Origin: an uncultured Chloroflexia bacterium
GTDB lineage: Bacteria; Chloroflexota; Anaerolineae; Anaerolineales; Anaerolineaceae
Assembly: GCA_963704755.1 (NCBI GenBank)
Contig: OY969938.1
Location: 1,020,001 to 1,052,000 of the forward strand
Direction of reading: 5' to 3'
Length of the DNA stretch: 32,000 nucleotides
Shown here: one piece after another, positions 6,473 to 32,000 of the stretch
How positions within the stretch are numbered: the stretch's first letter is position 1
How the letters are laid out: every line of letters begins with the position of its first letter
Position numbers and translations under genes: made by a program
Notes under the pieces: generated by a model
Database searches by the model: none
What the model was told of the DNA's origin: nothing
Seen by the model: only the letters and a program-made list of their open reading frames with translations

Positions 6473-6515
6473 TTTCATGCAGGATACCAGTAGTTTACGT
6501 TGGAAGTGACGAGCA

Positions 6516-6543
6516 ACTCATGGTTATATCCATGGGTTTTTTT
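6516..6543 (+). promoter_or_regulatory. Terminator-like hairpin plus U-tract inside the cspA 5' leader, a possible attenuator or thermosensor element
   Basis: ACUCAUGG (6516-6523) pairs with CCAUGGGU (6530-6537) to give 8 bp including one G-U pair. A T7 run follows at 6537-6543, about 80 nt upstream of the start codon. Confidence 0.4.
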
Positions 6544-6625
6544 GTTCTACCCGTTCCGATGAAACAAACCGAGTTCCTGACAAATCCTTTTTCTTTTTTT
6601 ACTTGCCACAAGGAGGCAAATCACA

Positions 6626-6838
6626 ATGTCTGAACGTATCATCGGTACGGTCAAATGGTTCAATGGCAGCAAGGGTTATGGTTTCATTGCTCGCGATGGT
6701 GGAGACGACGTCTTCGTTCATTTTTCCGCCATTCAGAGCGATGGGTATCGCACTCTTGAAGAAGGCCAAAAAGTTGAGTTCACGGTAGAAAAAGGCGCCA
6801 AGGGCCCCCAGGCCAGCAACGTCACCGTGGTCAGCTAA
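6626..6838 (+). CDS. cspA: Cold-shock protein (CspA family, single CSD)
   Basis: The 70-aa ORF reads [36 protein letters not shown] and contains the RNP1 (KGYGFI) and RNP2 (VFVHF) motifs. An AAGGAGG Shine-Dalgarno sequence lies 8 nt upstream. Confidence 0.97.
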
Positions 6839-6853
6839 TTTAGCCGCTGAACC

Positions 6854-6895
6854 AAAAATCACCCCCCGGTCAAGACCGGGGGGTGATTTTTTTTT
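6854..6895. terminator. Bidirectional rho-independent terminator shared by cspA (+) and the opp-like operon (-)
   Basis: ATCACCCCCCGGTC (6858-6871) and GACCGGGGGGTGAT (6874-6887) form a perfect 14-bp GC-rich stem. A T9 run follows on the plus side and an A5 run precedes it, which reads as a T-run on the minus strand. Confidence 0.9.
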
Positions 6896-6986: not shown

Positions 6987-7883
6987 TTATTCGATTGCAA
7001 CGTAATGATCAGGTTCCACCGCGACCAATCCACTGTAACTTTCGTCCTGACTCTGCGTTCCGGCCGGAACGACCGTTTCGGTCTTGTATTCCTTGCCGGG
7101 TTCTTCCCACTTCTTATCCAGCCGGGGAATTGAAGCCATCAGCATACGCGTGTAGCTATGCTGCGGGTTGTTGTAGATCTTTTCGGTCAAACCCATTTCC
7201 ACTACCTGCCCCCGGTAGAGGATAACGGCCCGTTCACTGATGTAATAGCCCAGCGACAGGTCATGGGTGATGAATAAAATGGATAACCCCTGCGATTTTA
7301 GGTCGGCCAGCAGGTTGAGTACGTCGATCCGCGTGGAAGCGTCCAACATGCTGATAATCTCATCCGCTACCAGGAAGCGAGTGTTCAACAAAAGCGCCCG
7401 GGCGATCAGGAAACGCTGGAGCTGGCCGCCGCTCAACTGGTGCGGGAATTTGTCGAGCACTTGCTCGGGGTTCAAGCCCACTCCCTTGAGCGAAGCCTCC
7501 ACCCGGCCGGTCCATTCCGACCCGGCAATGTGTGGGAAGAACTCATCGTGAATGATCTTAAACACCCGGTCCGCTTTGAAGATTGGATTATACGAGCTGA
7601 ACGGGTCTTGAAACACGCCCTGGACGGTACGGTAATATTCTTTTAATTTCGGGCCTTTTAAAGTGGTGATGTCCACGTCATCATGCAGGATTTTGCCCGA
7701 GCTGATCGAGATCAAGCGCAGGATCATCTTGCCGATCGTACTCTTACCGCTGCCGCTTTCGCCGATCAGCGAAACCACTTCGCCGTCTCGCAGGTCGAAA
7801 CTGACGTTATTGACCGCGCGCAGTTCTTTGCCGCCAAAGGCTCCAATCCGATAAATCTTTGAAATATTATCAAGCTTAAGCAT
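6987..7883 (-). CDS. Opp/Dpp-type ABC transporter ATP-binding protein (OppF/DppF-like)
   Basis: Motifs are Walker A GESGSGKST, signature LSGGQLQR and Walker B FLVADEIISMLD. I prefer the start MLKLDNISKIY at 7883, which gives an 8-nt ATGCTTAA overlap with the upstream stop. The ORF-track start at 7970 would add 29 aa that overlap the preceding gene. Confidence 0.88.
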   Translation of the reverse strand: MLKLDNISKIYRIGAFGGKELRAVNNVSFDLRDGEVVSLIGESGSGKSTIGKMILRLISISSGKILHDDVDITTLKGPKLKEYYRTVQGVFQDPFSSYNPIFKADRVFKIIHDEFFPHIAGSEWTGRVEASLKGVGLNPEQVLDKFPHQLSGGQLQRFLIARALLLNTRFLVADEIISMLDASTRIDVLNLLADLKSQGLSILFITHDLSLGYYISERAVILYRGQVVEMGLTEKIYNNPQHSYTRMLMASIPRLDKKWEEPGKEYKTETVVPAGTQSQDESYSGLVAVEPDHYVAIE

Positions 7884-8839
7884 TCGTACCGGTCTCCCTC
7901 CAGCAGGCCACCGAATGGCCCGGCTCGACTTCGATGAACGGCGGTTTTTCGATACACTTTTCGAACGCAACCGGGCAACGGTCCCTGAAACGACAACCGA
8001 CCGGTGGGTCGAGCAGCATTGGCGGTCGACCGGGAATTCCCATCAAGCGCTTTTCGGAGAATTTCACGCCTACCTTGGGCAGTGATGAAATCAGCAGTTT
8101 GGTGTAAGGGTGACGCGGGTTTTGGATGATCGCCTTGGTCGAGGCTTTTTCGGCTAATTCCCCGGCATACATGACCATAATACTGTCTGCGATCTGATAC
8201 AGGATGGAAATATCGTGAGTGATGACGATCACACTTTTGACGAATTTGCGGTCACGGAACTCGACCAGCATCTCGGCCACTGCCTTCTGGCTGGAAACGT
8301 CCAGCGCCGAGGTGATTTCATCCGCAATCAGCAGTGAAGGGTTCAACAGGGTCGAGAGCACCATCACCATGCGCTGTTTCATCCCACCCGAGAGTTCGAT
8401 CGGGAACATGTTCAGCACACTGGTAGGTAGATTTACCAGCTCCAGGCGCCGTTCCAGCTCGGGCAGCATTTCATGGTAACTTACCTTCCGGGATGCCAGC
8501 AAATCCGCGGTCATTCGGCCAATTTTGCGGGTCGGGTTCATCGCGTTCATCGCGTATTGTGGAATGATCGAAACCCGCTCGAACCTGAAACTATCCATCA
8601 TCTCGGAATCGTGGATCGGTAAATTGTCGCCATCCAGAGTAACCTGGCCACCCACATATTTCATCGGTGGGTTGAGCCGGATCAGGCTGTGACCCAGGGT
8701 GGTCTTTCCGCAGCCAGATTCTCCCGCCAGGCCCATGATCTCACCATCGGCTATTTTAAAGGTAGCGCTTTCCAGGGCATGGACATCTCCATGGAGAGTT
8801 CTGGTAATAGACTGTGAGTTTATCTACTTGTAAGCTCAT
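7876..8839 (-). pseudogene. Opp/Dpp-type ABC transporter ATP-binding protein (OppD/DppD-like) interrupted by a one-nucleotide frame change at 8800. This is a true frameshift, a sequencing error or recoding.
   Basis: The ORF track begins at MGLAGESGCGKTT, so Walker A would sit at residue 5 and the N-terminal strands would be missing. An ATG at 8839 lies 3 nt after the oppC stop and has a GGGAG Shine-Dalgarno sequence. It encodes MSLQVDKLTVYYQ in another frame. The +1 frame then continues TLHGDVHALESATFKIADGEIMGLAGESG. The total of 964 nt equals 321 codons plus 1 nt. Confidence 0.85.
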
Positions 8840-8842
8840 CCG

Positions 8843-9700
8843 TTACATCTCCCTGAGTTTGGGATTGAAAACTTCGTCCAGGCCGACGTTCATGATATAA
8901 AGCCCGCCGACGATTGCCGTGATGGCCAATCCTGGTGGTACAAACCACCACCACACACCCAGGAGAAGTGCTCCCCAAAGGACCGCATTATTCATCATCA
9001 AACCCAGCGAAATGGCGTTCGTCGGGCCTAACCCGATGAAATCCAGGGTCGCAGCCGTGAGAACCGCGCCGCCGAATTGCAAGATGAAGGTCATGAATAG
9101 ATAAGACATCATGTTCGGGGCAATTTCGGTGAAGATAATATTCCCCGAACGCATCCCGCTCATCCGTGAAAGATCCACAAAATCGCGGTTGCGCAGCGAG
9201 AAGGTCTGCGCACGGATGGCCCTGGCCGCCCAGGGCCAGGAGGTAAAGCCGATAAAGAGACTCTCAACCATCACACCGCGAACCTTCAGGTAAGCAGCAA
9301 TGATAAGCAAAATAGCCAGGGTGGGGATGACCAGGACGATATTGGTCAAAACATTGAGCACTTCGTCCACAAAACCACCGCGATAGCCCGCCGTAAAGCC
9401 AATTACCACGCCTAAGAGTGTACCCAGGCCGCCACCCACAATACCGACCAGGAAGGTTGCCTTAAGGCCTAGCAGGAATTGGGTCAATACATCCTGCCCC
9501 AGGGTGGTCGTCCCCAACAGGAACTTGGATGAAGGCGGTAAGGCGCCCTGAGAAACGAATTCATCTGGCTTGTGTGTAACGAACATTGGGCCGACGATTG
9601 CTAAAATGACGAAGAACAGCACCACAAACAGGCCAATCCGCAGTTTGGTGTTTCGCCATGCAAAATAGAGGAACTCGTTCTTCTTTTTCGTCGCCTTCAT
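8843..9700 (-). CDS. Opp/Dpp-type ABC transporter permease (OppC/DppC-like)
   Basis: The 285-aa membrane protein has an N-terminal TM helix and a BPD-transporter EAA-like loop (SRMSGMRSGNIIFTEIAPN). It overlaps the preceding permease gene by 4 nt. Confidence 0.88.
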   Translation of the reverse strand: MKATKKKNEFLYFAWRNTKLRIGLFVVLFFVILAIVGPMFVTHKPDEFVSQGALPPSSKFLLGTTTLGQDVLTQFLLGLKATFLVGIVGGGLGTLLGVVIGFTAGYRGGFVDEVLNVLTNIVLVIPTLAILLIIAAYLKVRGVMVESLFIGFTSWPWAARAIRAQTFSLRNRDFVDLSRMSGMRSGNIIFTEIAPNMMSYLFMTFILQFGGAVLTAATLDFIGLGPTNAISLGLMMNNAVLWGALLLGVWWWFVPPGLAITAIVGGLYIMNVGLDEVFNPKLREM

Positions 9701-10689
9701 GCTGATTTACCTAGCATTCCCATCCGGGTGCGCGGATCCACCAGGACATAAACGATATCGATGGCGAAATTAGCCAGCAACACCCCGATAATAATGAACA
9801 AGAAACATCCTTGCAGCAGGAAGTAATCCTGGTTTTGGATGGCTTCCAGAATCAGGTAACCGATGCCCGGGTAAGAAAACACGATCTCGGTGGCCAGCGC
9901 TCCGGCAATAATGACACCCAGTTGCAGTGCCAGGCCAGTTAATTGGGGCAGGACGGCATTCCTAAATGCATACCGCCGGACCAGTTTTTTTGGCGCCCCC
10001 AGCGCTTCGAGATAGTGTGAATAGTCGGCTTCGAGTTCGTAGATAATCATGTTACGCATGCCGATCGCCCAACCGCCGAATTGCACCATGAAGAGCGAGG
10101 CAAATGGTAAAAACCAGTGTTGCAATAAGCTGCCGATAAAAGCCCAGGACAAAGTGGGCCTCATCGAAAAGCTATACGCTCCTGAAATTGGAAAGATATG
10201 AAGGACGATTCCAAACACCCATCCCAGCAAAATTCCCAGCCACATATACGGCGTAGCGGTGAGGATATAGCCAATAGGTGAAATCGTGTTGTCCAGCCGT
10301 TTGGTGCGAGCTGCGATCGCTCCGAAATTATTACCGGCAAACCAGCTTAACAGGATAGCCGGGAGCAGCAGAAAGAGGTCGTAGGGTACGGCTCTTTTAA
10401 TGACCGTGATCACGGGTGTCGGATAAACAAATACGCTCGTTCCCAGGTCACCATGGAAAAGAGCCACCCAAAAGTTTAGATATTGTTTCCAAATCGGTAA
10501 ATCCAGGCCAAAAGCTTTGGTGAAATAACCGGTCATGGCCTGGGCGGCATTTGCCCGTAAACTATAGCGTGACAAAAGAATTTGGACGGGATCACCGGGC
10601 ATGAAGCGCGGGATCATCCAATCGATGGTCACCGCCAGGAAGAATGTTAAGAGGTAGATGAGGATCTTTCTCCTGATGTATCGGTTCAC
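9697..10689 (-). CDS. Opp/Dpp-type ABC transporter permease (OppB/DppB-like)
   Basis: The 330-aa ORF has the N-terminus MNRYIRRKILIYLLTFFLAVTIDWMIPRFMPGDP, characteristic of OppB/DppB. It also has an EAA loop (YLEALGAPKKLVRRYAFRNA). It starts at GTG with a GGAG Shine-Dalgarno sequence. Confidence 0.9.
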   Translation of the reverse strand: MNRYIRRKILIYLLTFFLAVTIDWMIPRFMPGDPVQILLSRYSLRANAAQAMTGYFTKAFGLDLPIWKQYLNFWVALFHGDLGTSVFVYPTPVITVIKRAVPYDLFLLLPAILLSWFAGNNFGAIAARTKRLDNTISPIGYILTATPYMWLGILLGWVFGIVLHIFPISGAYSFSMRPTLSWAFIGSLLQHWFLPFASLFMVQFGGWAIGMRNMIIYELEADYSHYLEALGAPKKLVRRYAFRNAVLPQLTGLALQLGVIIAGALATEIVFSYPGIGYLILEAIQNQDYFLLQGCFLFIIIGVLLANFAIDIVYVLVDPRTRMGMLGKSA

Positions 10690-10894: not shown

Positions 10895-12706
10895 CTACTG
10901 AGCGGCCGCGGCAGGCTGTAAATCACACAGCATGAGGATAGCGGTCATATTCCAGTAACCACGCCAGGTTACCGGCAGGTAATGGTTGGCATCGGTTGCC
11001 TCAGACGGCCAGTTGGTCCAGTAGGTGTTGTTGTACTGAGCCCAGGCGCCGTTGTACCACATCGGGATCAACGGTACGTTTTGCATCTGGATCGTCTGCA
11101 ATTGCGAAATGATGGATTTCATCGTAGCAACATCATCAGTCTTGGTCTGGTCGAGCTGATCAACCAGGTCGAAGGCTTTTTGATTGTCGTAGCGGCCATA
11201 GTTACCATTCTGGATGGTCGCGACGTTCGCCAGATCGCTCATGAATATCCAATGGTAGTACGTCCAGGGGCTGTTGCTCATCTGCGCGTCATTGGCGATC
11301 ATCATATCGAAGGTGGCGTTGTTGCGCTGATCGATGTAGCCGCCATAGTCCGGGAAGTTGGATTGGGCATCAATGCCGATCGCCTGCAGGCTGCTGACGA
11401 TGATCTTGTTGGCTTCCATCCAGTCTGTCCAGCCATCCGGGTTATTGACGTTCAATTGAATCTTCGAGCCATCCGGAGCTTCAACGAAACCATCGCCATC
11501 GATATCTTTGTAGCCGGCGGCTGCCAGGATTTGCTTGGCCTTGTCCGGATCGTATGAGATACCGTCTTTGCTGACGACAGCCTGATCCACATACTGGTCC
11601 CAAATGGGCAGTAAGCCGGTCGGGTTGGAGGCAGCTACGATGTTGCCATAGTCCTGGTCAACGATCTGCTGAACGTTGATGCCGTAGGCAACTGCCTTGC
11701 GGAAGTTGACGTCATCCATAGGCTTCTTGGTCAGGTTCAGGAGCAGCCAGGCCGTGTTGGCAGAAAGCATATATGGAGGCTGAGAGTAGTAAGTCTGAAC
11801 GCCATAACCACCGTTGACCAGCGTGGCGATGCCGGGCAGGAAGTTGTTACTCAGGTCAAGTCCGCCTTGCAGGACCATACCCAGGGCAACGTTGTTGCTG
11901 CCGTTGACCACATCGACGATGTACTTTGGCTTGGGATCCAGATTGAGAGCCGAAATCGCCCACCAGTTGGGGTTCTTCACCCACACCATGCGGTCCTGGC
12001 CGTAGGAGTTGAACAGGTACGGGCCGGTGCCGACAGGTTTCTCATTGGCGCCAGAGGTGATCTCATCCTGGCTCATGCTAGACCACAGGTGCTGCGGCAC
12101 AACGGGGGTTGAGTAGAGGACGTTCGCCCACTGTTGGTACAGAGCCTTGGTGAAATTGAAGTCGAGGGTGTAATCATCCACCTGGTCGATGCTGGAGAGG
12201 AAGTCCCAGATTGTGCTGATGTTGATCGGGTTCGTTTTGCCAAGTTCGAATGTGAATTTCACATCCGCAGCGGTGAGGGGCTGGCCATCCGACCAGTTGA
12301 TGCCCTGGCGAATTTTTACTTCATAGACGGTATCGCTCGTCCAGTCGCCGCTTTCGGCCAACCAGGGTTTGTACTCGTTGGTCATCGGGTCATACAGGAA
12401 CAGGGTTTCATAGACCAGGCCCAGGGTGCCCATGGCATAACCACCGGTGTTGAAGGGGTTCCAACTGGAAGGTGGGCCATACTGTGTACCGCTGGTGTAA
12501 AGGGTTTCATCCCTTGGGAAGGTTTCTGCTGAGGCTTCCGGGGTGGCGGTCACGATTTGTGTTTCTGGCGTGCCCGGGACGATCACGGTCTGCTGAATCA
12601 CTTCCGGGGGCTGAGTCGCAGCCGGCGTTGCTGCCGGGCTACAGCTTGTTAGTGCCAAGCTCGCTAAAATAACGATACTTGCGACAGTCAATACTACCTT
12701 ACGCAT
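10895..12706 (-). CDS. ABC transporter substrate-binding lipoprotein, family 5 (OppA/DppA-like), probably binding an oligosaccharide
   Basis: The 603-aa ORF has a signal peptide with the lipobox LALTSC followed by a Pro/Ala/Thr-rich linker. Its size and position ahead of the BCDF genes fit an OppA/DppA-type SBP. A GGAGG Shine-Dalgarno sequence lies upstream. Confidence 0.88.
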   Translation of the reverse strand: MRKVVLTVASIVILASLALTSCSPAATPAATQPPEVIQQTVIVPGTPETQIVTATPEASAETFPRDETLYTSGTQYGPPSSWNPFNTGGYAMGTLGLVYETLFLYDPMTNEYKPWLAESGDWTSDTVYEVKIRQGINWSDGQPLTAADVKFTFELGKTNPINISTIWDFLSSIDQVDDYTLDFNFTKALYQQWANVLYSTPVVPQHLWSSMSQDEITSGANEKPVGTGPYLFNSYGQDRMVWVKNPNWWAISALNLDPKPKYIVDVVNGSNNVALGMVLQGGLDLSNNFLPGIATLVNGGYGVQTYYSQPPYMLSANTAWLLLNLTKKPMDDVNFRKAVAYGINVQQIVDQDYGNIVAASNPTGLLPIWDQYVDQAVVSKDGISYDPDKAKQILAAAGYKDIDGDGFVEAPDGSKIQLNVNNPDGWTDWMEANKIIVSSLQAIGIDAQSNFPDYGGYIDQRNNATFDMMIANDAQMSNSPWTYYHWIFMSDLANVATIQNGNYGRYDNQKAFDLVDQLDQTKTDDVATMKSIISQLQTIQMQNVPLIPMWYNGAWAQYNNTYWTNWPSEATDANHYLPVTWRGYWNMTAILMLCDLQPAAAAQ

Positions 12707-16615: not shown

Positions 16616-19426
16616 TTACGCCTTGCGCAGCGCCATTAAAATCTTTTCCTGGTCCACCGGTAGACTGTCCAGGCGGACACCGACTGCATTGTAGATGGCA
16701 TTGGTGATGGCCGGGCTGGTGGGAATGAGGACGATCTCGCCCACGCCTTTGGCGCCAAAGGGCCCGTCCGGGCTGGGGTGTTCGACCACGATCGTGGTAA
16801 TCTCCGGCGTCATGGTGATCGAGGGGATGCGGTAACGCGCCAGCCGGTCGGTGATCACCATGCCCTTATCGACGATAAATTGCTCGGTCAGGGCATGGCC
16901 AACCCCCATCATCGCTCCGCCTTCGAGCTGGCCTTGCAGCCCGAGCGGATTGACGGCGATGCCTACATCGTTCGCGGTGATCAGGCGCAGCACCTTCACC
17001 TCGCCGGTCAGCAAGTTCACTTCGACTTCGATCGCCTGGGCAGCGAACGAAAAAGCGAAGTGCATATCTCCGCCTTCACCTAACGGGCGTGTAGCCGGGG
17101 CCCAATAGGTATACATCGCCTGGGGCGAGCGCCCATCTTCGATAATCTGCTGGGCTAACTCGGAAAGCTCCACGGTAAAACCGTTGGCGTGCGCCAGGCC
17201 CTCTTCGTAACGGATCTTCTCCGGCGGCACATCGTACCGCTCGGCCAGTTCGCTGGTCATCAACTCGCGTAGGGCCCGTGAAGCGTAGCGCACCGCGTTC
17301 CCGGTGACGAACGTTTGCCGTGAAGCGGTGGTCGGTCCGCCGTCCGGGGTCAGGTCGGTATCCGAGAGCAGCACGTCCACCTGGTGGGCGGGTTGGTCCA
17401 GCTCTTCGGCCGCGATCAATTGCAACACTGTGGGCAGCCCCTGGCCCAATTCGGCCGACGAGGTCCGTACCTGGAAAGTCCCATCCCGGCGCAGCTCGAC
17501 TTCGGCACCGGCTTTGTCCGGCGCACCGCCGCCCAGGCCGGTGTTCTTGTAAGCCACAGCGAAACCCCACGAGCGCACCAGGTGTGGTGCGCCGGCCACT
17601 TTTTTCGCCTGGAAGGGCTGATCACCGCCCAATTCGTGCAATTTAGCTTCGACCTGCGCAATGCAATCCAGCAAGCCCACACTGTTGCGCAGCACCTGGC
17701 CGGTGTTGGTAACGCTGCCTTCGTGCAGGGCGTTCATCCGGCGCAGCTCCAGCGGATCGATGGCCAGTTTCTCGGCCAGCGTGTCCATCATGCTTTCCAC
17801 CGCAAAAGCCGACTGCATGACCCCAAACCCGCGGAAAGCGCCCGCAGGCGGGTTGTTGGTGTACATCGCGAAACAATCCGCCTTGACGTGCGGAACCTCG
17901 TACGGCCCGGAAGAATGGGTGGTGGCGCGGGTCATGACCTTATCGCCCAGCGAGGCGTATGCGCCGGTATCGCCGTACAATTCGGTCTCGACCGCGGTTA
18001 GCCGGCCGTCTTTCCTGGCACCAACCTTGACCCGGATCTGGGTCGCATGGCGCTTGGGATGGGCGATCAGGCTCTCCTGGCGGTCGTACAGCAGCTTGAC
18101 CGGCCGGCCGGTGGCCTGCGTCAGCAAAGCCGCAAAAATTTGCCCGGCAATGTCCTCTTTCCCGCCGAAACCGCCGCCGATCAACTGGCCCACAATCCGC
18201 ACCCGCGATTCCTCCCAACCTAACACCCGCGCAACCTGGCTGCGGTCCTCATAAGGGATCTGTGAGCCGACGAAAATCTCCATGCGTCCCTCCGGAGTCA
18301 GGCGCGAGATGCTGCATTCGGGCTCCAAAAAGGCGTGGTCGTGCACCGGAGTATGGTAAGTATGTTCCAGGATAACGTCCGCTTCCGCAAAGCCTTCCGT
18401 AACGTCACCCTTGCGGACCTTGATATGTTTGAGCAGGTTGCCCTGGGGGTGGATAGACTCCGCGTCCGGCTGATTTGCCAGAACCGGGTCATCCACGACA
18501 GGCAATAAATCGAACTCGGCTTCGATCAAATCGACCGCCTGGCCGGCAATCTCGCGGGTGTCGGCGGCCACAATCGCCAGAGCATCCCCTACCGTGCGGA
18601 TACGCTCGCCCAGGCCGACCATCACCGGCCAATCGAAGACCACCACGCCGTGATTGTGCTCACCGGGGATGTCCGCGGCGGTCAAAACCGCCACTACACC
18701 GGGCAGCGCGCGGGCTTTACTGACGTCCAGTTTGCGCAAGGTTGCCGACGGCACCATGGCCCGTTTGACCCGTGCATGCAGCATATTCTCAAATACCAGG
18801 TCGTCGGTGAAAATAGCTTTCCCGGTCACTTTCGCCACCGCATCCGGCCGCGGGCGGATCTGGCCCACTTCTTTTCGCCCGGCCGGCGAAGGCGCCAGCC
18901 TGGGCAGCGCCACCGGCTCGCCGGTGCGCAGGCTGTCCGCAGCCGCATGGATCGCCCGCAAAATGCTCGGGTACCCTCCACAGCGGCAAAGGGTATCTTT
19001 CAAAGCGTCCTTAATCTCGTCGTCGCTCGGGTCCGGGTTATGCTGCAGCAGTGCATAGGACGTCAATAACTGCCCAGGGATGCAGAAACCGCACTGGACC
19101 GAGCCGTATTTGATAAATGCTTCCTGAAGGGGATGGAGCGCCACTTCCTCCGGGGTTTGTTGGGCTTGCGGGGCGGCCTTCCCCAACCCTTCGATTGTCA
19201 TGACCGAAGCGCCATCCGCCTTGGCGGCCGGGTAGGAACAGGACAGCACCGGCTCGCCATCCAGGATGACGGTGCATGAGCCGCACTCGGCTTCGTTACA
19301 GCCGATCTTGGTCCCGGTCAATCGCAAGCGGTCGCGCAGCAGGTCCGCCAGCATTTCACCGGGGACTTCTTCCAATTCATACGGTTGCCCGTTTACAGTC
19401 AAGTGGATCATTCGCTCGCCGGTCAT
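16616..19426 (-). CDS. Xanthine dehydrogenase/aldehyde oxidoreductase-family molybdenum hydroxylase, with the [2Fe-2S] small subunit fused to the molybdopterin-binding large subunit (MOP-like)
   Basis: The 936-aa ORF has N-terminal CNEAECGSCTV and CRCGGY two-cluster motifs. The MoCo domains follow, with the signature GGGFGGK (LIGGGFGGKEDI). A 4-nt ATGA overlap links it to the FAD subunit gene. Confidence 0.9.
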   Translation of the reverse strand: MTGERMIHLTVNGQPYELEEVPGEMLADLLRDRLRLTGTKIGCNEAECGSCTVILDGEPVLSCSYPAAKADGASVMTIEGLGKAAPQAQQTPEEVALHPLQEAFIKYGSVQCGFCIPGQLLTSYALLQHNPDPSDDEIKDALKDTLCRCGGYPSILRAIHAAADSLRTGEPVALPRLAPSPAGRKEVGQIRPRPDAVAKVTGKAIFTDDLVFENMLHARVKRAMVPSATLRKLDVSKARALPGVVAVLTAADIPGEHNHGVVVFDWPVMVGLGERIRTVGDALAIVAADTREIAGQAVDLIEAEFDLLPVVDDPVLANQPDAESIHPQGNLLKHIKVRKGDVTEGFAEADVILEHTYHTPVHDHAFLEPECSISRLTPEGRMEIFVGSQIPYEDRSQVARVLGWEESRVRIVGQLIGGGFGGKEDIAGQIFAALLTQATGRPVKLLYDRQESLIAHPKRHATQIRVKVGARKDGRLTAVETELYGDTGAYASLGDKVMTRATTHSSGPYEVPHVKADCFAMYTNNPPAGAFRGFGVMQSAFAVESMMDTLAEKLAIDPLELRRMNALHEGSVTNTGQVLRNSVGLLDCIAQVEAKLHELGGDQPFQAKKVAGAPHLVRSWGFAVAYKNTGLGGGAPDKAGAEVELRRDGTFQVRTSSAELGQGLPTVLQLIAAEELDQPAHQVDVLLSDTDLTPDGGPTTASRQTFVTGNAVRYASRALRELMTSELAERYDVPPEKIRYEEGLAHANGFTVELSELAQQIIEDGRSPQAMYTYWAPATRPLGEGGDMHFAFSFAAQAIEVEVNLLTGEVKVLRLITANDVGIAVNPLGLQGQLEGGAMMGVGHALTEQFIVDKGMVITDRLARYRIPSITMTPEITTIVVEHPSPDGPFGAKGVGEIVLIPTSPAITNAIYNAVGVRLDSLPVDQEKILMALRKA

Positions 19427-20310
19427 AATACACCTCCATCCGCGGCCCGTGACCAGGCCTTCTCCAATACCTCTTCTAATAATCCGTCACTTAATTCGTA
19501 CCGATAAGCAGACGAGGCCCGCATCGCGCTGGAGCGGAAGCGGATGGTCTCGCGTAATTTTGCTTTTGCATTGGCAACAGCCTGTGGGGTAAACTTCTGG
19601 CCCGCCAGAACTTCTTCGACCGCCGTGGCTCGTGTGGGTACCGCGCCTCCCGGCCCAATGGAAATCCGCACCGAGTGGATAAAGTCAGCTTCCCGTTCAA
19701 GCCAGACGGCCATATTCAGGATGGGTAAGGCCACTCCTTGCGGCCGCATAATCCGGCTGAAGGCCGAGCTTTGCCCCGCCCTTCTTTTTTGGATGGAAAA
19801 ACCGACCAGAATTTCCCGGCAGGGATCCAGCGCTGATTTACCCGGCCCGAGGAACAATTTTGCCAGCGGCGCTTCGCGTATCCCTTCCGGGCTGGCAATT
19901 TGGACCAGTGGGTCGAATGCTAACAAAGCGATCGTGCCATCCGCGGCCGGCAACGCGTGAGCGACGTTACCGCCCAGGGTGGCCGCGTTGCGCACCTGCG
20001 GCCCGCCGATCAAGTTACAGGCCTCCGCCAGGGCTTTGGCATGCTCGCGGATAAGTTCCGAAGTCGTGATTTTGCGCAATGGCAGGCCGGCCCCGATAAA
20101 AATACTGTCCCCACTCATTTCCAACCGGTTGAGTTCGGCAATGCGGGTGACATCGACCAGCGTTTGAGGAGGTGGCTGCCTGTTTTGTTGAATATCCAGC
20201 AGTAGATCGGTTCCTCCCCCTATCGGGCGAGCCGGGCCGCTTGCGGTCGCCAGGGCTCGCAGGGCATCCTCTAACGAATGCGCCAAAATGTAATTTTGCC
20301 ATGTGCTCAT
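19423..20310 (-). CDS. FAD-binding subunit of the molybdenum hydroxylase (CoxM/XdhB-like)
   Basis: The 295-aa ORF has the GGGTDLL motif of the FAD_binding_5 fold and a C-terminal CO-dehydrogenase flavoprotein domain. A GGAGGA Shine-Dalgarno sequence lies upstream. Confidence 0.88.
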   Translation of the reverse strand: MSTWQNYILAHSLEDALRALATASGPARPIGGGTDLLLDIQQNRQPPPQTLVDVTRIAELNRLEMSGDSIFIGAGLPLRKITTSELIREHAKALAEACNLIGGPQVRNAATLGGNVAHALPAADGTIALLAFDPLVQIASPEGIREAPLAKLFLGPGKSALDPCREILVGFSIQKRRAGQSSAFSRIMRPQGVALPILNMAVWLEREADFIHSVRISIGPGGAVPTRATAVEEVLAGQKFTPQAVANAKAKLRETIRFRSSAMRASSAYRYELSDGLLEEVLEKAWSRAADGGVL

Positions 20311-20515
20311 AATCGGTGGATTCCTCCGGAAGGCGGTACTTTTCGACGGGCTCTGAGGCCCGACGCCGACTTGTAATGGGTTTGGCCAAGCCGACCACCG
20401 ATTGGTTTCTGCTATAAATCTGCCAGACAGCAGTTTTTTGTTAATTCACGAAAATCATCTTCCCCATAAATGCATGGGGAGTTCTTTTATTATAAGACGT
20501 TTTAGGTCTAAATTG

Positions 20516-20529
20516 AACTTTCATTTTTG
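20516..20529. repeat. Direct repeat copy 1 (AACTTTCATTTTTG)
   Basis: This is an exact 14-nt copy of 20636-20649. The two copies bracket a 106-bp segment that contains the 55-nt palindrome. Confidence 0.9.
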
Positions 20530-20557
20530 GCAACTGCCCAGCCAAACAGGGAAGAAA

Positions 20558-20612
20558 CCCGAATTCAAGGTGTTTGCTTGGGCTTTGCCCAAGCAAACAC
20601 CTTGAATTCGGG
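20558..20612. repeat. Perfect 55-nt palindrome with a 26-bp stem and 3-nt loop
   Basis: CCCGAATTCAAGGTGTTTGCTTGGGC (20558-20583), TTT, then GCCCAAGCAAACACCTTGAATTCGGG (20587-20612). I verified base by base that the arms are exact reverse complements. An outer AAGAA/TTCTT pairing (20552-56 with 20616-20) extends the stem across a small bulge. Confidence 0.95.
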
Positions 20613-20635
20613 AACTTCTTAGCAAGTGTCTGGGT

Positions 20636-20649
20636 AACTTTCATTTTTG
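20636..20649. repeat. Direct repeat copy 2 (AACTTTCATTTTTG), which contains the last two sense codons and the stop of the ABC ATPase gene
   Basis: It is identical to 20516-20529. The minus strand reads CAA AAA TGA AAGTT, i.e. ...Q K stop of the 524-aa ATPase. Confidence 0.9.
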
Positions 20650-22215
20650 AAGGTCGCCGGTTTCGTGGACTCCGGCCATCATCAACCCAAGCTGTTCGGT
20701 TGTGGCCGTGCGGCCATCGACAATGCCTACGATCTGGCCTTCGTAAATCACCGCGATCCGGTCCGAGATGGCACGGACTTCATCCAGGTCCTCCGAGATC
20801 AACAAAGTGGCGGTACCGGTTTCGCGCTGTTCGAGCAGCTTCTTCTGAATGTATTCGGAAGCCCCAATATCCACCCCACGGGTGGGCTGGGCAGCGATCA
20901 AGACCTTTGGCTTTCGTGAAAGCTCGCGCGCCAGGATCAATTTCTGAATATTCCCGCCGGAGAGATTCTTGATGGGCGTATCCAACCCCGGTGTCTTGAC
21001 CGAATAATCCTGGACCAGGCGGGATGCCTCCCGCTGAATAGCCCGGGTATTGAGGAAAGTACGGCTCGAATAAGGCTTTTTGTTATGGTCCTCCAGGATG
21101 ACGTTATCGGCCACACTGAAATCTTTGATGGCCCCTTCGCGCATGCGCTCTTCCGGGATGTAGGATTGGCCGGCCTCGATCCGCCTGGCCGGGGAAGCGT
21201 TGGTCACATCCTTGCCGACCAGGGTAATTTGCCCAGTCCGCACCGGACGCAGTCCCGCCAAGGCTTCCGCCAGCTCGCGCTGACCATTGCCCGAAACGCC
21301 TGCCAACCCGAGGATTTCTCCGGCGTGTAAATCGAAGGAAATTCCGCGCAGCGCATCCTCGCCGCGGTCGCCGCGCACGAACAGGCTCTCGACTTTCAAC
21401 AAGACATCCCCAAAATGAGCCGGGGAGCGGTCGTACTGCAAGATTACCGGGCGCCCGACCATCATCTGGGCCAGCTCGGTCTTGGTCGCACCCTGGGTGG
21501 CGCAGGTCCCCACCACCCGGCCATCACGCAGCACGGTGATACGCTGGCTGATCGCCAGCACCTCATGCAGCTTGTGCGAGATGAATATCATCGCGTGGCC
21601 ATCCTTGGCCATCTGCTCGAAGGTCTTGAAGAGCTCATCGACTTCCTGCGGGGTCAACACAGCAGTGGGTTCGTCCAAAATCAAAAGCGCCGCACCGCGG
21701 TAGAGCGCCTTGACGATCTCGACACGCTGCTGTTCACCGACCGCCAACTGCCAGACGTATGCCCGCGGTTCTACTTTGAGGCCGTATTGCTCCCCCAGGA
21801 TGCGGATCCTTTTTTCGACCGTATCCAGGTCGAGGACCGGTCCACGGCCAGACTTCAGCCCCAGGGCCACGTTTTCCAGAACGGTCAATGAAGGCACCAA
21901 CATAAAATGCTGGTGGATCATGCCGATTCCAGCATTGATCGCGTCGGTGGGCGAATTGAAATGTTTTTCCTCGCCGTTGATTATAATTTTGCCTTCGTCC
22001 GGCTTGTATAACCCATATAACTGGCGCATCAGGGTACTTTTCCCGGCGCCATTTTCGCCCAGGAGCGCGTGAATCTCACCGGCTTTCAGGTCAAAATTGA
22101 CATGGTCATTCGCCAGAACGCCGGGAAAGCGTTTGACGATATCCACCATGCGCATTTCTTCGATTTGTCCTTTTCCTGCAGGAAGAAGGTCTGCCATTCG
22201 CTCAGAAATCCTCAT
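20641..22215 (-). CDS. ABC transporter ATP-binding protein with duplicated ATPase domains (partner of the BMP-family or sugar-type importer)
   Basis: The 524-aa ORF has Walker A GENGAGKST. Its two signature motifs are LAVGEQQRVEI and LSGGNIQKLILAREL, and its Walker B motifs are LLILDEPTA and VLIAAQPTRGVD. The start is uncertain: ATG codons for M1, M7 or M21 are all possible. Confidence 0.9.
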   Translation of the reverse strand: MRISERMADLLPAGKGQIEEMRMVDIVKRFPGVLANDHVNFDLKAGEIHALLGENGAGKSTLMRQLYGLYKPDEGKIIINGEEKHFNSPTDAINAGIGMIHQHFMLVPSLTVLENVALGLKSGRGPVLDLDTVEKRIRILGEQYGLKVEPRAYVWQLAVGEQQRVEIVKALYRGAALLILDEPTAVLTPQEVDELFKTFEQMAKDGHAMIFISHKLHEVLAISQRITVLRDGRVVGTCATQGATKTELAQMMVGRPVILQYDRSPAHFGDVLLKVESLFVRGDRGEDALRGISFDLHAGEILGLAGVSGNGQRELAEALAGLRPVRTGQITLVGKDVTNASPARRIEAGQSYIPEERMREGAIKDFSVADNVILEDHNKKPYSSRTFLNTRAIQREASRLVQDYSVKTPGLDTPIKNLSGGNIQKLILARELSRKPKVLIAAQPTRGVDIGASEYIQKKLLEQRETGTATLLISEDLDEVRAISDRIAVIYEGQIVGIVDGRTATTEQLGLMMAGVHETGDLQK

Positions 22216-22221
22216 TAATTC

Positions 22222-22251
22222 GGATAGCCGGGCTTTTCAACCCGGCTATCC
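22222..22251 (-). repeat. Intercistronic 11-bp perfect hairpin between the SBP and ATPase genes
   Basis: GGATAGCCGGG (22222-32) pairs with CCCGGCTATCC (22241-51). There is no U-tract. It shares the TAGCCGGG/CCCGGCTA core with the hairpins at 16493-16539. Confidence 0.7.
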
Positions 22252-22269
22252 GTAGATTTACCCGGTTGA

Positions 22270-23301
22270 CTACTGGCTCACAACCTGGTCGGGCAGCGTA
22301 ACGGTTCCATCTTCGATGCCCTTGATAGCTGCATCTGCGGCAGCTTTGACATCAGCGGGTACCGGTACCTGATCGTTGTATTTGATCACCAGGCCATTAT
22401 TCTTGAAGGTCAGGGTGTAGGCTTTGTTGCCCAACACACCGGCTTTGATACTGGCAATCATATCTTTGACCACGCCGGTCCAGTCGTAGACCATGCTGGC
22501 CACAACGGTATCCGGAGCCAGGGCGGTCTGGTCCCACTGGGCGCCGAACCACTTGGCGCCTTTGTCTTTGGCCACGCCGATAGCGCCCACCACCGACTGG
22601 GAAGATCCGGTCAGCATGTCGGCGCCGGCGGCGATGTGCGTCTCAGCGGCGGCAGCCATCAAAGACACATCCGAAAACGAGCCGGTATATGAAACGTTAA
22701 CCTTGATATCGGGTTTGGCAGCTTCCGCACCAGCCTTGAAGCCATCCACGTACAGTTTTGCGTCACCGGCCTCAACTGGGCCGGTCTCGCCTAACACACC
22801 CGACTTCGACATCATCGCAGCGATCGTACCCAGTACGTAACCGCCCTGCTCAGCCTGGGCCTGGTAGGCAAAAATATTGTTGATGCCATCTTCCTGGAAG
22901 GTATCCAGCGAAGTACCCCAGGCAAAACTGGTGTTCGGGAAGTCCGGCGCAATTTGCTGCAGAGACGAGCCGTACTGTGAACCGTGGGCGATGACCAGGT
23001 TGTAACCCTGGGAAGCATAATCACGGACGGCAGCGGCCGCATCCGGCACATTGTACAGGTTTTCGGAATAGGCAATCTCGAACTGGCTGGGGCCGCCCAT
23101 TTCGGTCTGTACGGAAAGCAGCGCTTCGTACATCGACTGGCTGAAGGCCTGGTCGGTAATGGCGCTGGGCATCACAATGGCCACCCGGAAAGGCTTTGCG
23201 GCTTCGGCGGTGGGTGTAGCGGTGGCAGCCGGCGCGCAGGCGCTCACGGCCATAACCAATACGGTCACCAACAATATCAACTTGAACATTCTCGATTTCA
23301 T
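22270..23301 (-). CDS. BMP-family (Med/PnrA/TmpC-like) ABC transporter substrate-binding lipoprotein, probably binding a purine nucleoside or nucleobase
   Basis: The 343-aa ORF has a signal peptide with the lipobox AVSAC. The core has the BMP pattern FRVAIVMPSAITDQAFSQS...VIAHGSQYG. Confidence 0.85.
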   Translation of the reverse strand: MKSRMFKLILLVTVLVMAVSACAPAATATPTAEAAKPFRVAIVMPSAITDQAFSQSMYEALLSVQTEMGGPSQFEIAYSENLYNVPDAAAAVRDYASQGYNLVIAHGSQYGSSLQQIAPDFPNTSFAWGTSLDTFQEDGINNIFAYQAQAEQGGYVLGTIAAMMSKSGVLGETGPVEAGDAKLYVDGFKAGAEAAKPDIKVNVSYTGSFSDVSLMAAAAETHIAAGADMLTGSSQSVVGAIGVAKDKGAKWFGAQWDQTALAPDTVVASMVYDWTGVVKDMIASIKAGVLGNKAYTLTFKNNGLVIKYNDQVPVPADVKAAADAAIKGIEDGTVTLPDQVVSQ

Positions 23302-23526
23302 TATATCTACTCCTCCATTTATTCATGTATTGATCGCAATTAGTCGGGCGTTGGCAAGAATTTCCCGGGAGGCAAGGGCGAACCTCCTGCAAATACCATA
23401 ATCCCGGGGTTCCTACTCATCCGACCGAGTAATTACCATGGATCAACCCTGCCTGGGGATACGTACAAGTGGATTAATGGATTCCGCGGCCTCCTTTCTG
23501 GACAAAATCGAATTCCTCGGATCAGG

Positions 23527-24459
23527 TTAGTTTTCGCCCCGTTCGAAGGGTTTGGTCAGCGCATCGGGTTGGTTGGTGCGGCGGACTGCGAAAACGAGCG
23601 CCAGGATGGTCAGGATATATGGCATCATGACCGCAATGTCAGAGGGCAGGTTGATACCTTTCACCTGGATCCAGAGCTGCAAGGCGTTGACAAAACTGAA
23701 CAACAAAGCGCCCGCCATCACACCGTTGGGGCGCCAACCACCAAAATAAACCAGGGCCACAGCTATGAAGCCCATCCCATTGGTCATGTTCTCCTGGAAC
23801 AGGTTAATCAGCGCGATTGAAAGGGAAGCCCCGGCGATACCGGCCAGAATCCCGCCAATACAGACCGTAATGTAGCGGATACGGTTGACGTTGACACCTA
23901 ACGTATCGGCGGCCTGGGGGTTTTGCCCGACCGCGCGGACTTTCAGCCCAAAGGTCGTCTTGTTGAGCACCCAGGTAGCCAGGGGAACCAGCAGGAAAGC
24001 CCCATAAACCAAAATATTATGGTCGAAAAGCACACTGCCAACGTAGGGGATATCTCCCAATAGGGGGATTTTGATCGGCTGAAAACCATTGATCAACTCG
24101 GCTCCGCCCAGGGTGGTCTTGAACAACAATGTGGAGAGTCCCAGGCCGAATAATTGCAAGCCAATTCCGCTGATACCCTGTTCGGCTTGCAGGGTAACGC
24201 TGATGACCGCCATCAGCAAACCCATCAGCAGACCTACCAGGCCGGCCGCCAGCAGACCCAGCCACAGGTTGCCGGTCTTCATCCCGGCAAAAAAGCCGGC
24301 GTAGGCGCCCATCAGCATAATGCCATCTACACCCAGGTTGAGCACACCGGAGGTTTGGGCAAAGGTCTCACCAATCGCGGCGTAAAGATACGGGGTCGCC
24401 AGGCGAATGCCCGAATAAATAATTCCCAGTAGTACCGGTAGCGTGAATAGATCAGACAT
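23527..24459 (-). CDS. ABC transporter permease (YufQ/NupC-type, BMP system)
   Basis: The 310-aa polytopic protein belongs to the BPD_transp_2 family (branched-chain/ribose type). Its start is coupled to the upstream permease through an ATGTCTGA overlap once that gene's frame is corrected. Confidence 0.88.
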   Translation of the reverse strand: MSDLFTLPVLLGIIYSGIRLATPYLYAAIGETFAQTSGVLNLGVDGIMLMGAYAGFFAGMKTGNLWLGLLAAGLVGLLMGLLMAVISVTLQAEQGISGIGLQLFGLGLSTLLFKTTLGGAELINGFQPIKIPLLGDIPYVGSVLFDHNILVYGAFLLVPLATWVLNKTTFGLKVRAVGQNPQAADTLGVNVNRIRYITVCIGGILAGIAGASLSIALINLFQENMTNGMGFIAVALVYFGGWRPNGVMAGALLFSFVNALQLWIQVKGINLPSDIAVMMPYILTILALVFAVRRTNQPDALTKPFERGEN

Positions 24460-25532
24460 CCATTTCTCTCCTGCGAGCCCGCCGTGTCCCCCAAATTTTG
24501 CTGCCCACCACGAATAGGACCACTAAACCCAATAGAGTTCTGGATTAATGCAGACGGTACCTGCACAGCGCGCTGCATTTTGTCTCCTCCCACCAGCAAA
24601 CCGCCAAACAAAATCGAGGCCGGGATGGCCCCCAGCGGGTGTAAATTCCCAAAGAGCGCGGCTACGATGCCCGAAAAGCCATATCCGCCGGACAAACCTT
24701 CCAGCATACGGTGCTGGACACCCAGCACCTCTACCGTCCCGGCCAGGCCGGCAAAGGCCCCACCCAGGGTCAACGCCAGCATCTGGTAGAAAGGTACCGG
24801 GATACCGGCATAGCGGGAAGCCTTGGGATTGAGCCCTACCGCGCGGATGCGGTAACCGATCGTCGTCCGCCAGAGGAAAATGTACACTAATCCGGCCAGG
24901 ACCACCGCCAGGATGGCGCCTGAGTGCAGCAGCGTTTGCGGCACCAGCCGCGCCAGGTAAACCTGTTTGGGCAGCAGGGCCGATTGGGCAATCCGCGTGC
25001 CGGCGGCGATTTCTGCCGGATCGATCAGCGGTCCGCGCAGCAGAAAATTTGCAAGCTGGGTCGCAATGGCGTTCATCATGACCGTGCTCAGGATCTCGTT
25101 CACCCCCAGTCGAGCCTTGAGGAAACCCGGGATACCCCCCCAGACTGCACCACCCAAAGCCCCTGCAAGCAGGCAGAGCGGCAGCAAGATCACACCCGGC
25201 CAGGTTGGGAAACTTACCGCCAGGGCGGTGGTGGCCAGAGCGCCGACCAGGATCTGTCCCTCCCCGCCGATGTTGATCACCCCGCCGCGAAAGGCGATCG
25301 TGACACCCAGGCCAACCAGCAGCAGCGGCGTGGCTTTGACCAGTGTCTGGGTGATACCCGAGACACTCCCAAAAGCACCTTGAAAGAGCGAGCCGTACGC
25401 CTCGATCGGGTTCGCCTTGAGGGCTAATAACATTATGGCACCGAATATAAAAGCAACCGGGACTGCCAGGAGTGGAAGTAATGCTTCCATGATACGGTTG
25501 AGTATGGTTCTCAATCCTTGATGATCCGGCAT
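24452..25532 (-). pseudogene. ABC transporter permease (YufP/NupB-type, BMP system) with a one-nucleotide frame change at 24539. This is a true frameshift, a sequencing error or recoding.
   Basis: After ...GGDKMQRAVQVPSALIQ the ORF-track frame reads an unlikely hydrophilic tail (NSIGFSGPIRGGQQNLGDTAGSQERNG...). That tail overlaps the next gene by 133 nt. The +1 frame gives TLLGLVVLFVVGSKIWGTRRARRREMDV-stop, a final TM helix plus a basic tail. It ends at 24452 in the classic 8-nt overlap with the next start. The total of 1081 nt equals 360 codons plus 1 nt. Confidence 0.85.
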
Positions 25533-26024
25533 TCTTTGATAGAACTCTCTTTCGGTTTTATGGTAAGGGGATAAGACAGGGCTGCGATGTCATCCCTGTT
25601 TGGTGAGGGCAATTCCCAAAGAAACAGGCTATTGGGGCAAATTCACGATCTTGCGATTACCCTGGAGGTAAGGTGCGGCTGATCCACCGAAAACCATTTG
25701 AATCCACAAACAACTGTATATGCGGGAGCAGCGGCCGAATTTTGGCCCCACATATAGAGGATCACTCCCCTATGGTGAATTATTATTATCGGGAAATCAG
25801 TAAGGTTATCAATCAGTATAGAAGAATTTAAACCTTTTGCCAACTGATTTTAATAATGATCTTACGATTTTTCGGGAAATGTATGACATTTCGATGATTA
25901 AATTGCCATCCTTTCACCCGGGTAACCATAAGTAACAAAGGTTATCCAATTTCGCCTGATTTACCTAGCCCCGTTTGGGTAGTTTTCATAAATCGGTTCT
26001 CCGGGATTTCCCGTGGTAAGGGGA

Positions 26025-31582: not shown

Positions 31583-32000
31583 CTAGTCGAAGCGGAAGCG
31601 CCAGATGGCGATGCCCCAGAAGATGACGGCGAAACCTAGCAGCACACCAACACTGGGCAGGATAGCGCTTACGCCCAGCCCGCGGACAATCACGTCCTGG
31701 AACCCGTTCAGCGCCCAGGAATGGGGGGTGAACTTGGCCAGCGTCTGCATGAAGTGCGGCATCACATACAACGGGATCATGCTGCCGCCGATAGCGGAGA
31801 GCATCACCGCCAGCAGCGTGCCCAGGCTGCCGGCCTGTTCCTGGGTCTTGGTCAGGCTGGCCAGCAGTAAGCCCATCCCGGTCGCGGCGGCAGCCGAGGC
31901 CAGGGATAGCAGGATCAATGCCAGGTAGTTATTGCCCAGGGTCATGTGGAAGACCAGGATGCCGACCGTGAACATCAACGCGATCTGGACCAGGTTGACC
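31583..32000 (-). CDS. ABC-2 type transporter permease, C-terminal part (gene continues beyond the window)
   Basis: The frame stays open up to position 32000 (...VNLVQIALMFTVGILVF...). The hydrophobic C-terminal half carries the ABC-2 pattern (SLGTLLAVMLSAIGGSMIPLYVMP...PHSWALNGF). Confidence 0.8.
   Translation of the reverse strand, partial: VNLVQIALMFTVGILVFHMTLGNNYLALILLSLASAAAATGMGLLLASLTKTQEQAGSLGTLLAVMLSAIGGSMIPLYVMPHFMQTLAKFTPHSWALNGFQDVIVRGLGVSAILPSVGVLLGFAVIFWGIAIWRFRFD

Follow-up and report, generated by a model that had tools for sequence, protein, structure and literature searches.

Frame breaks at a recurrent 10-mer in two ABC importer genes of an Anaerolineaceae-like Chloroflexota MAG: a probable consensus insertion at methylated GANTC

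GANTC-linked errors and +1 frameshifting in described systems

GANTC is the target of N6-adenine (m6A) methyltransferases of the CcrM/HinfI type, CcrM being the cell-cycle methylase of alphaproteobacteria. In R10.4.1 nanopore reads, DNA modification gives rise to strand-specific G-to-A/A-to-G miscalls at motifs such as GATC; some of the methylation-induced miscalls reach the assembly, and extra depth is no cure for them (PMC11610603; bioRxiv 10.64898/2026.01.14.699587). In Brucella, errors in ONT assemblies were associated with GANTC, with some occurrences of the motif affected and others spared (PMC12392509). Methylation-induced systematic errors of R10.4.1 were also described by Lohde et al. 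2024, as that work is cited in PMC12392509. The methylation-linked errors documented in these papers are mostly substitutions (PMC11610603; PMC12392509; bioRxiv 10.64898/2026.01.14.699587).

We analysed a 32,000-nt stretch of DNA (the window) from a 4,871,623-bp single-contig MAG (NCBI/ENA), a form typical of long-read MAGs. A +1 frame break was found at each of the two copies of a 10-mer, CCAGAACTCT, one in a gene for an OppD-like ATPase and the other in a gene for a BMP-system permease. Very probably, the surplus A found in both copies is a context-specific consensus insertion at methylated GANTC and not a real feature. The case resembles the R10.4.1 methylation errors of Liu et al. 2024 (PMC11610603) in its clustering at a methyltransferase motif and in G/A confusion beside presumed 6mA; we also liken it to them in that those errors affect a subset of motif occurrences, survive polishing and lie mostly in coding sequence. 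As with the GANTC-linked errors of Brucella (PMC12392509), both corrected sites and two other anomalies fall on GANTC. Unlike the R10.4.1 cases, which are mainly substitutions, the change here is a 1-nt insertion in a context of 8-10 nt, and we infer both the platform and the methylation. Unlike the hosts of CcrM, the organism is an Anaerolineaceae-like member of the Chloroflexota, for which a HinfI-like restriction-modification system or an orphan methylase must be assumed. No methyltransferase gene was seen in the window.

The other system for comparison is +1 frameshifting of the prfB/RF2 type. As in that system, a +1 shift is required here for a full-length conserved protein. Unlike in that system, there is no re-pairing site of the CUU-U type, neither an in-frame stop nor a hungry codon at the point of the shift, and no upstream Shine-Dalgarno sequence, and orthologs do not share the shift.

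Two frame breaks at one 10-mer

Exactly two copies of the 10-mer are present in the window, and both lie on the minus strand (Table 1). Its expected count is 0.02, and at least two copies appeared in none of 100 dinucleotide-preserving shuffles. An earlier note on this DNA had claimed that the 10-mer is unique to the two sites, that the two breaks share sign and position within it, and that ATTA lies 0-2 nt upstream of both; all three claims were confirmed, the distance to ATTA being 0 nt at the OppD site and 2 nt at the permease site.

Table 1. Positions of the genes, 10-mer copies, read-derived contigs and GANTC sites discussed in the text.
Feature	Position in window	Strand	Remarks
BMP-system (PF02653) permease 1	24452..25532	minus	359 aa with one A dropped; 401 aa, to 24327, as assembled
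BMP-system permease 2	23527..24459	minus	ATG overlaps the restored permease-1 stop codon (ATGTCTGA)
OppD-like ABC ATPase	7876..8839	minus	320 aa with one A dropped; 27-aa and 286-aa ORFs as assembled
CCAGAACTCT, copy 1	8795..8804	minus	surplus A at 8799 or 8800; Logan L001 stops at 8803, L002 begins at 8799
CCAGAACTCT, copy 2	24534..24543	minus	surplus A is 24538 or 24539; one A less gives CCA-GACTC-T
Logan L001	11461..8803	minus	99.96% identical to window
Logan L002	8799..5820	minus	100% identical to window
GANTC site (GAATC) in OppB-like gene (9697-10689, minus)	10207..10211	minus	Logan G-to-A at G
GANTC site (GATTC)	11458..11462	minus	L001 starts between G and A (G/ATTC)

Around the permease break, the sequence of the coding strand is GCA TTA ATC CAG AAC TCT ATT GGG. 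In frame 0 (...VPSALIQNSIGFSG...), the 401-aa ORF overlaps the next permease gene by 133 nt, which is the intrusion of the frame-0 tail described before. Removal of one A, either 24539 (the nucleotide skipped in the earlier proposal) or 24538, gives ...ALIQTLLGLVVLFVVGSKIWGTRRARRREMDV-stop, and the restored stop codon overlaps the start of the next gene via ATGTCTGA; the proposed restoration and start/stop overlap are therefore upheld. With the correction, coverage of the Pfam profile by permease 1 is extended from positions 2-245 to positions 2-268 of 269.

For comparison with relatives, 80 related genome loci were fetched, and the 61 with the conserved stretch MQR.VQ.P..L were counted. The frame is intact across the site in 61/61, and the spacing ALI-x-x-x-x-GL is constant. 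Among the matches listed, nearly all permease homologs are 359 aa long, equal to the corrected length, and 76-84% identical (83-84% for the next-best match). These homologs are from Anaerolineaceae and other Chloroflexota; the window's own product (P0001) has 401 aa.

In the OppD-like gene, the coding strand at the break is TAT TAC CAG AAC TCT CCA, and frame 0 runs into a stop after 27 aa. One A less gives YYQTLHGDVHALESATFKIADGEIMGLAGESGCGKT, including the Walker A motif, in line with the earlier view that this oppD-like gene is broken at the aligned 10-mer. Residues 3-314 of the corrected OppD show a gap-free alignment to the structure of Mycobacterium tuberculosis OppD (8j5q_D), and the Thr just past the junction pairs with a Thr in 8j5q_D. 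The match of the corrected protein to ABC_tran now begins at profile position 2 instead of 15. Based on the intact frame in all 61 loci, the 359-aa homologs and the gap-free alignment of OppD, each break is an insertion of one base with respect to the relatives examined.

Programmed +1 recoding at C-CAG-A-ACU-CU, through quadruplet decoding of CAGA by a tRNA with an expanded anticodon or through a new +1 signal, would also account for two breaks of identical sign and position in the same 10-mer, and both restored products are indeed full-length and conserved. We consider such recoding extremely improbable. The corresponding picture of a real A skipped by the ribosome, with full-length proteins produced and the peptide AVQVPSALIQTLLGLVVLFVVGSK to be expected, has only the faintest chance of being correct. 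For a tRNA-Gln on CAG, re-pairing with AGA is not possible; AAC, which follows, is an ordinary codon, neither rare nor a stop; and there is no GGAGG-like element upstream at either site. Downstream folds were no better than those of shuffled sequences (z = +0.76 and +0.54). The Rfam scan gave no element at the sites, and the window is devoid of tRNA genes. The shift is present in 0/61 related loci and in no homolog among the matches listed. Quadruplet decoding would need 4 nt alone, yet CAGAA is found 48 times in the window, mostly within intact genes. Recoding would also leave the breaks between read-derived contigs, described below, unexplained. The biological options raised in the earlier note, a programmed +1 shift and a tRNA whose anticodon loop has 8 nt, find no support in these data.

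Partial copies of the 10-mer were used to delimit the part associated with the breaks. The 8-mer CCAGAACT is also present at 19605 (+), within the intact gene for a xanthine-dehydrogenase FAD subunit, and the 8-mer AGAACTCT at 25541 (+), in an intergenic region 9 nt upstream of the start codon of permease 1. Neither is accompanied by a break, so that the break-associated core is narrowed to CAGAACTC, the sole sub-motif confined to both breaks within the window. In the related loci (1.34 Mb), CAGAACTC occurs 16 times, with a paired frame break in 0/16; as the full 10-mer is present in 0/16 as well, this is a weak control.

Three other sources of the extra A were considered and rejected. A target site (TTAC) of the IS200/IS605 type was dismissed since there is no inserted element. 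A remnant of the Illumina small-RNA 5' adapter, which shares AGAGTTCT, was dismissed since the match extends over 8 nt only, and transcriptional slippage since there is no homopolymer at the sites.

Among the approximately 28 genes of the window, no further frame breaks were found. An ABC-2 gene (31583-31978) was examined as a third frameshift and rejected, because its ORF simply leaves the window at the right edge. Homopolymer-type frameshifts are absent from the rest of the window, which points to a high-accuracy long-read consensus with residual errors that are motif-specific.

GANTC sites and read-derived contigs

At both break sites, removal of one A creates GACTC, an instance of GANTC, in the context CCA-GACTC-T; among random 9-mers, about 2% would include a GANTC. 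In the window there are 48 GANTC sites, covering about 0.75% of positions. GANTC is 2.5-fold under-represented, with 48 sites compared to 122 expected from composition and ~117 +/- 11 from a second-order Markov model. CTNAG and TCNGA are depleted in the window to much the same degree, and CCNGG is 2.1-fold enriched. Because the depletion is common to CTNAG and TCNGA, it is not specific evidence, and we dropped it as a signal of restriction-modification.

When the proteins of the OppC- and OppF-like genes on either side were looked up for exact matches, each gave one Logan contig (L001 and L002), both from run ERR11571143. L001 ends with ...GTCTATTACC and L002 starts with ACTCTCCATGG..., leaving AGA of CC/AGA/ACTCT (slashes mark the contig edges) uncovered at the OppD site; in L002, the OppD frame is open up to the contig edge (TLHGDV...). 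In a k-mer graph, a fixed clonal insertion does not produce a break, whereas disagreement among reads or spanning k-mers below threshold do. The contig ends are thus indirect evidence that reads disagree at the OppD site. Because the left contig ends at CC and not at CCAGA, more than two read variants or a dropout of k-mers must be assumed.

The two contigs together show a single mismatch to the window in 5.6 kb. It is located at window position 10211, where the window has TTTG-GAATC-G and Logan TTTG-AAATC-G, within a GANTC site of the OppB-like gene. The G-to-A change would convert Gly160 of the OppB-like protein, a residue of the hydrophobic segment LGILLGWVF[G/E]IVLHIF, into Glu. As a Glu would then lie within a hydrophobic membrane helix, the mismatch is taken as a read error rather than a variant; the window version looks correct, and the Logan G-to-A looks like a methylation-linked miscall at the level of reads. 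The start of L001 interrupts another GANTC site (Table 1). In the region covered by Logan contigs, trouble was seen at 3 of the 8 GANTC sites, and the other five were read cleanly. By our estimate, the joint chance of two contig anomalies on GANTC together with two corrected sites that are both GANTC is about 1e-6. The remaining contig end, at 5820 (GGCCGAG/ACCATG, in an intact Nramp gene), is outside any GANTC; low coverage, a variant between strains or a different motif may lie behind it.

The contig break could also stem from allelic heterogeneity in the population, and AA stands in the assembly consensus at both sites; these observations would fit real insertions, that is, pseudogenes or population-variable alleles arising by site-specific mutation, such as error-prone repair acting on a GANTC-related site. 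We regard real insertions as very unlikely. A bubble of two alleles predicts a left contig end at CCAGA, but CC was found, and the G-to-A discrepancy at the other GANTC site resembles a read error. Two independent events in 32 kb that otherwise holds no pseudogenes would be odd. We know of no mechanism for insertion of a single A at a non-repetitive 10-mer, and a site-specific mutational process not yet known would have to be invoked. More generally, that the A is truly in the DNA, as the site of +1 recoding at C-CAG-A-ACU-CU or as a GANTC-derived mutational or phase-variation switch of the importers in a subpopulation, is highly improbable. With such a switch, k-mer contigs would likewise break at the site, and a real A would mean a new sequence-specific frameshift or a mutational hotspot.

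Near variants of the predicted true sequence are read without insertion: AGACTCT after a G (9258+, 16064-) and CAGACTC before an A (position 7-). The predicted true 8-mer itself, CAGACTCT, is found 0 times in the window, where just ~0.5-1 copy is expected. The need for the full 8-9-mer, and the fact that most GANTC sites are read correctly, would suit a long-read consensus error without methylation, in which the basecaller or polisher mis-sizes CAGACTCT on unmodified DNA. We consider an error of this kind unlikely, as the other two contig anomalies fall on GANTC, which makes up so small a part of the window, and this is hard to explain without a cause at the level of the motif.

Look-ups for additional sequences of the organism gave little. 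No second independent assembly of the species was found in the collections, where the search with junction-spanning peptides returned identities of at most 89%. No exact protein match was obtained for the frameshifted permease, for permease 2 or for the Bmp binding protein. In cluster look-ups of 20 window proteins, 15 were found, each in the source contig alone. By these exact-protein, cluster and junction-peptide look-ups, no read-derived contig was found at the permease site. A search of papers for the run accession ERR11571143 had no matches.

Proposed origin of the extra A and gene context

Of the alternatives left by the earlier note, which had inferred the action of some sequence-specific process, either technical or biological, at the two sites, the technical one is favored by the appearance of GANTC upon correction, the contig break and the anomalies at other GANTC sites. 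According to our model of a methylation-linked consensus insertion, the extra A is most likely absent from the DNA of the organism, where CCAGACTCT, with GACTC inside it, most likely stands instead. The organism would carry N6-methyladenine at GANTC. In long reads of native DNA, most likely from nanopore sequencing, the modified A would disturb the signal of the surrounding k-mer, and reads would differ over 2-3 bases around the G-A step, with confusion between G and A. Where the context is C-AGACTC-T, assembly or polishing may then end in a consensus with one A too many (GAACTC). At both sites, either of the two A's may be the surplus one.

An error tied to a local k-mer is bound to recur wherever that k-mer recurs, and such recurrence would explain why breaks of the same sign are placed identically within the 10-mer in two unrelated genes. 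If the extra A is a consensus error, both ABC-importer genes are probably intact and functional, and the biology of the two transporters is ordinary. It would also follow that MAGs built from long reads only can hold recurrent false frameshifts at one methylation-linked k-mer, leading to false pseudogenes, split gene calls and mimicry of recoding signals. A single k-mer that recurs at frame breaks could therefore serve as a cheap flag for error and, indirectly, for a methylation motif.

The two permease genes belong to a BMP-type nucleoside ABC importer, completed by a double ATPase and a Bmp binding protein, in the region 16616-25532 on the minus strand. The importer genes are located directly upstream of genes for FAD and Mo/2Fe-2S subunits of the xanthine-dehydrogenase family, an arrangement that suggests a cluster for purine uptake and catabolism in 16616-25532 (minus). 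An ORF of 67 aa (20441-20644, minus) shares 4 nt with the end of the ABC ATPase gene, across its stop codon. No Pfam family matches this ORF, and the protein collection has no identical sequence.

The sole match in the Rfam scan of the window was a cspA thermoregulator (RF01766, 102.7 bits) at 6484-6889 (+). It covers the 5' leader and the coding part of a gene for a 70-aa cold-shock protein (6626-6838, +).
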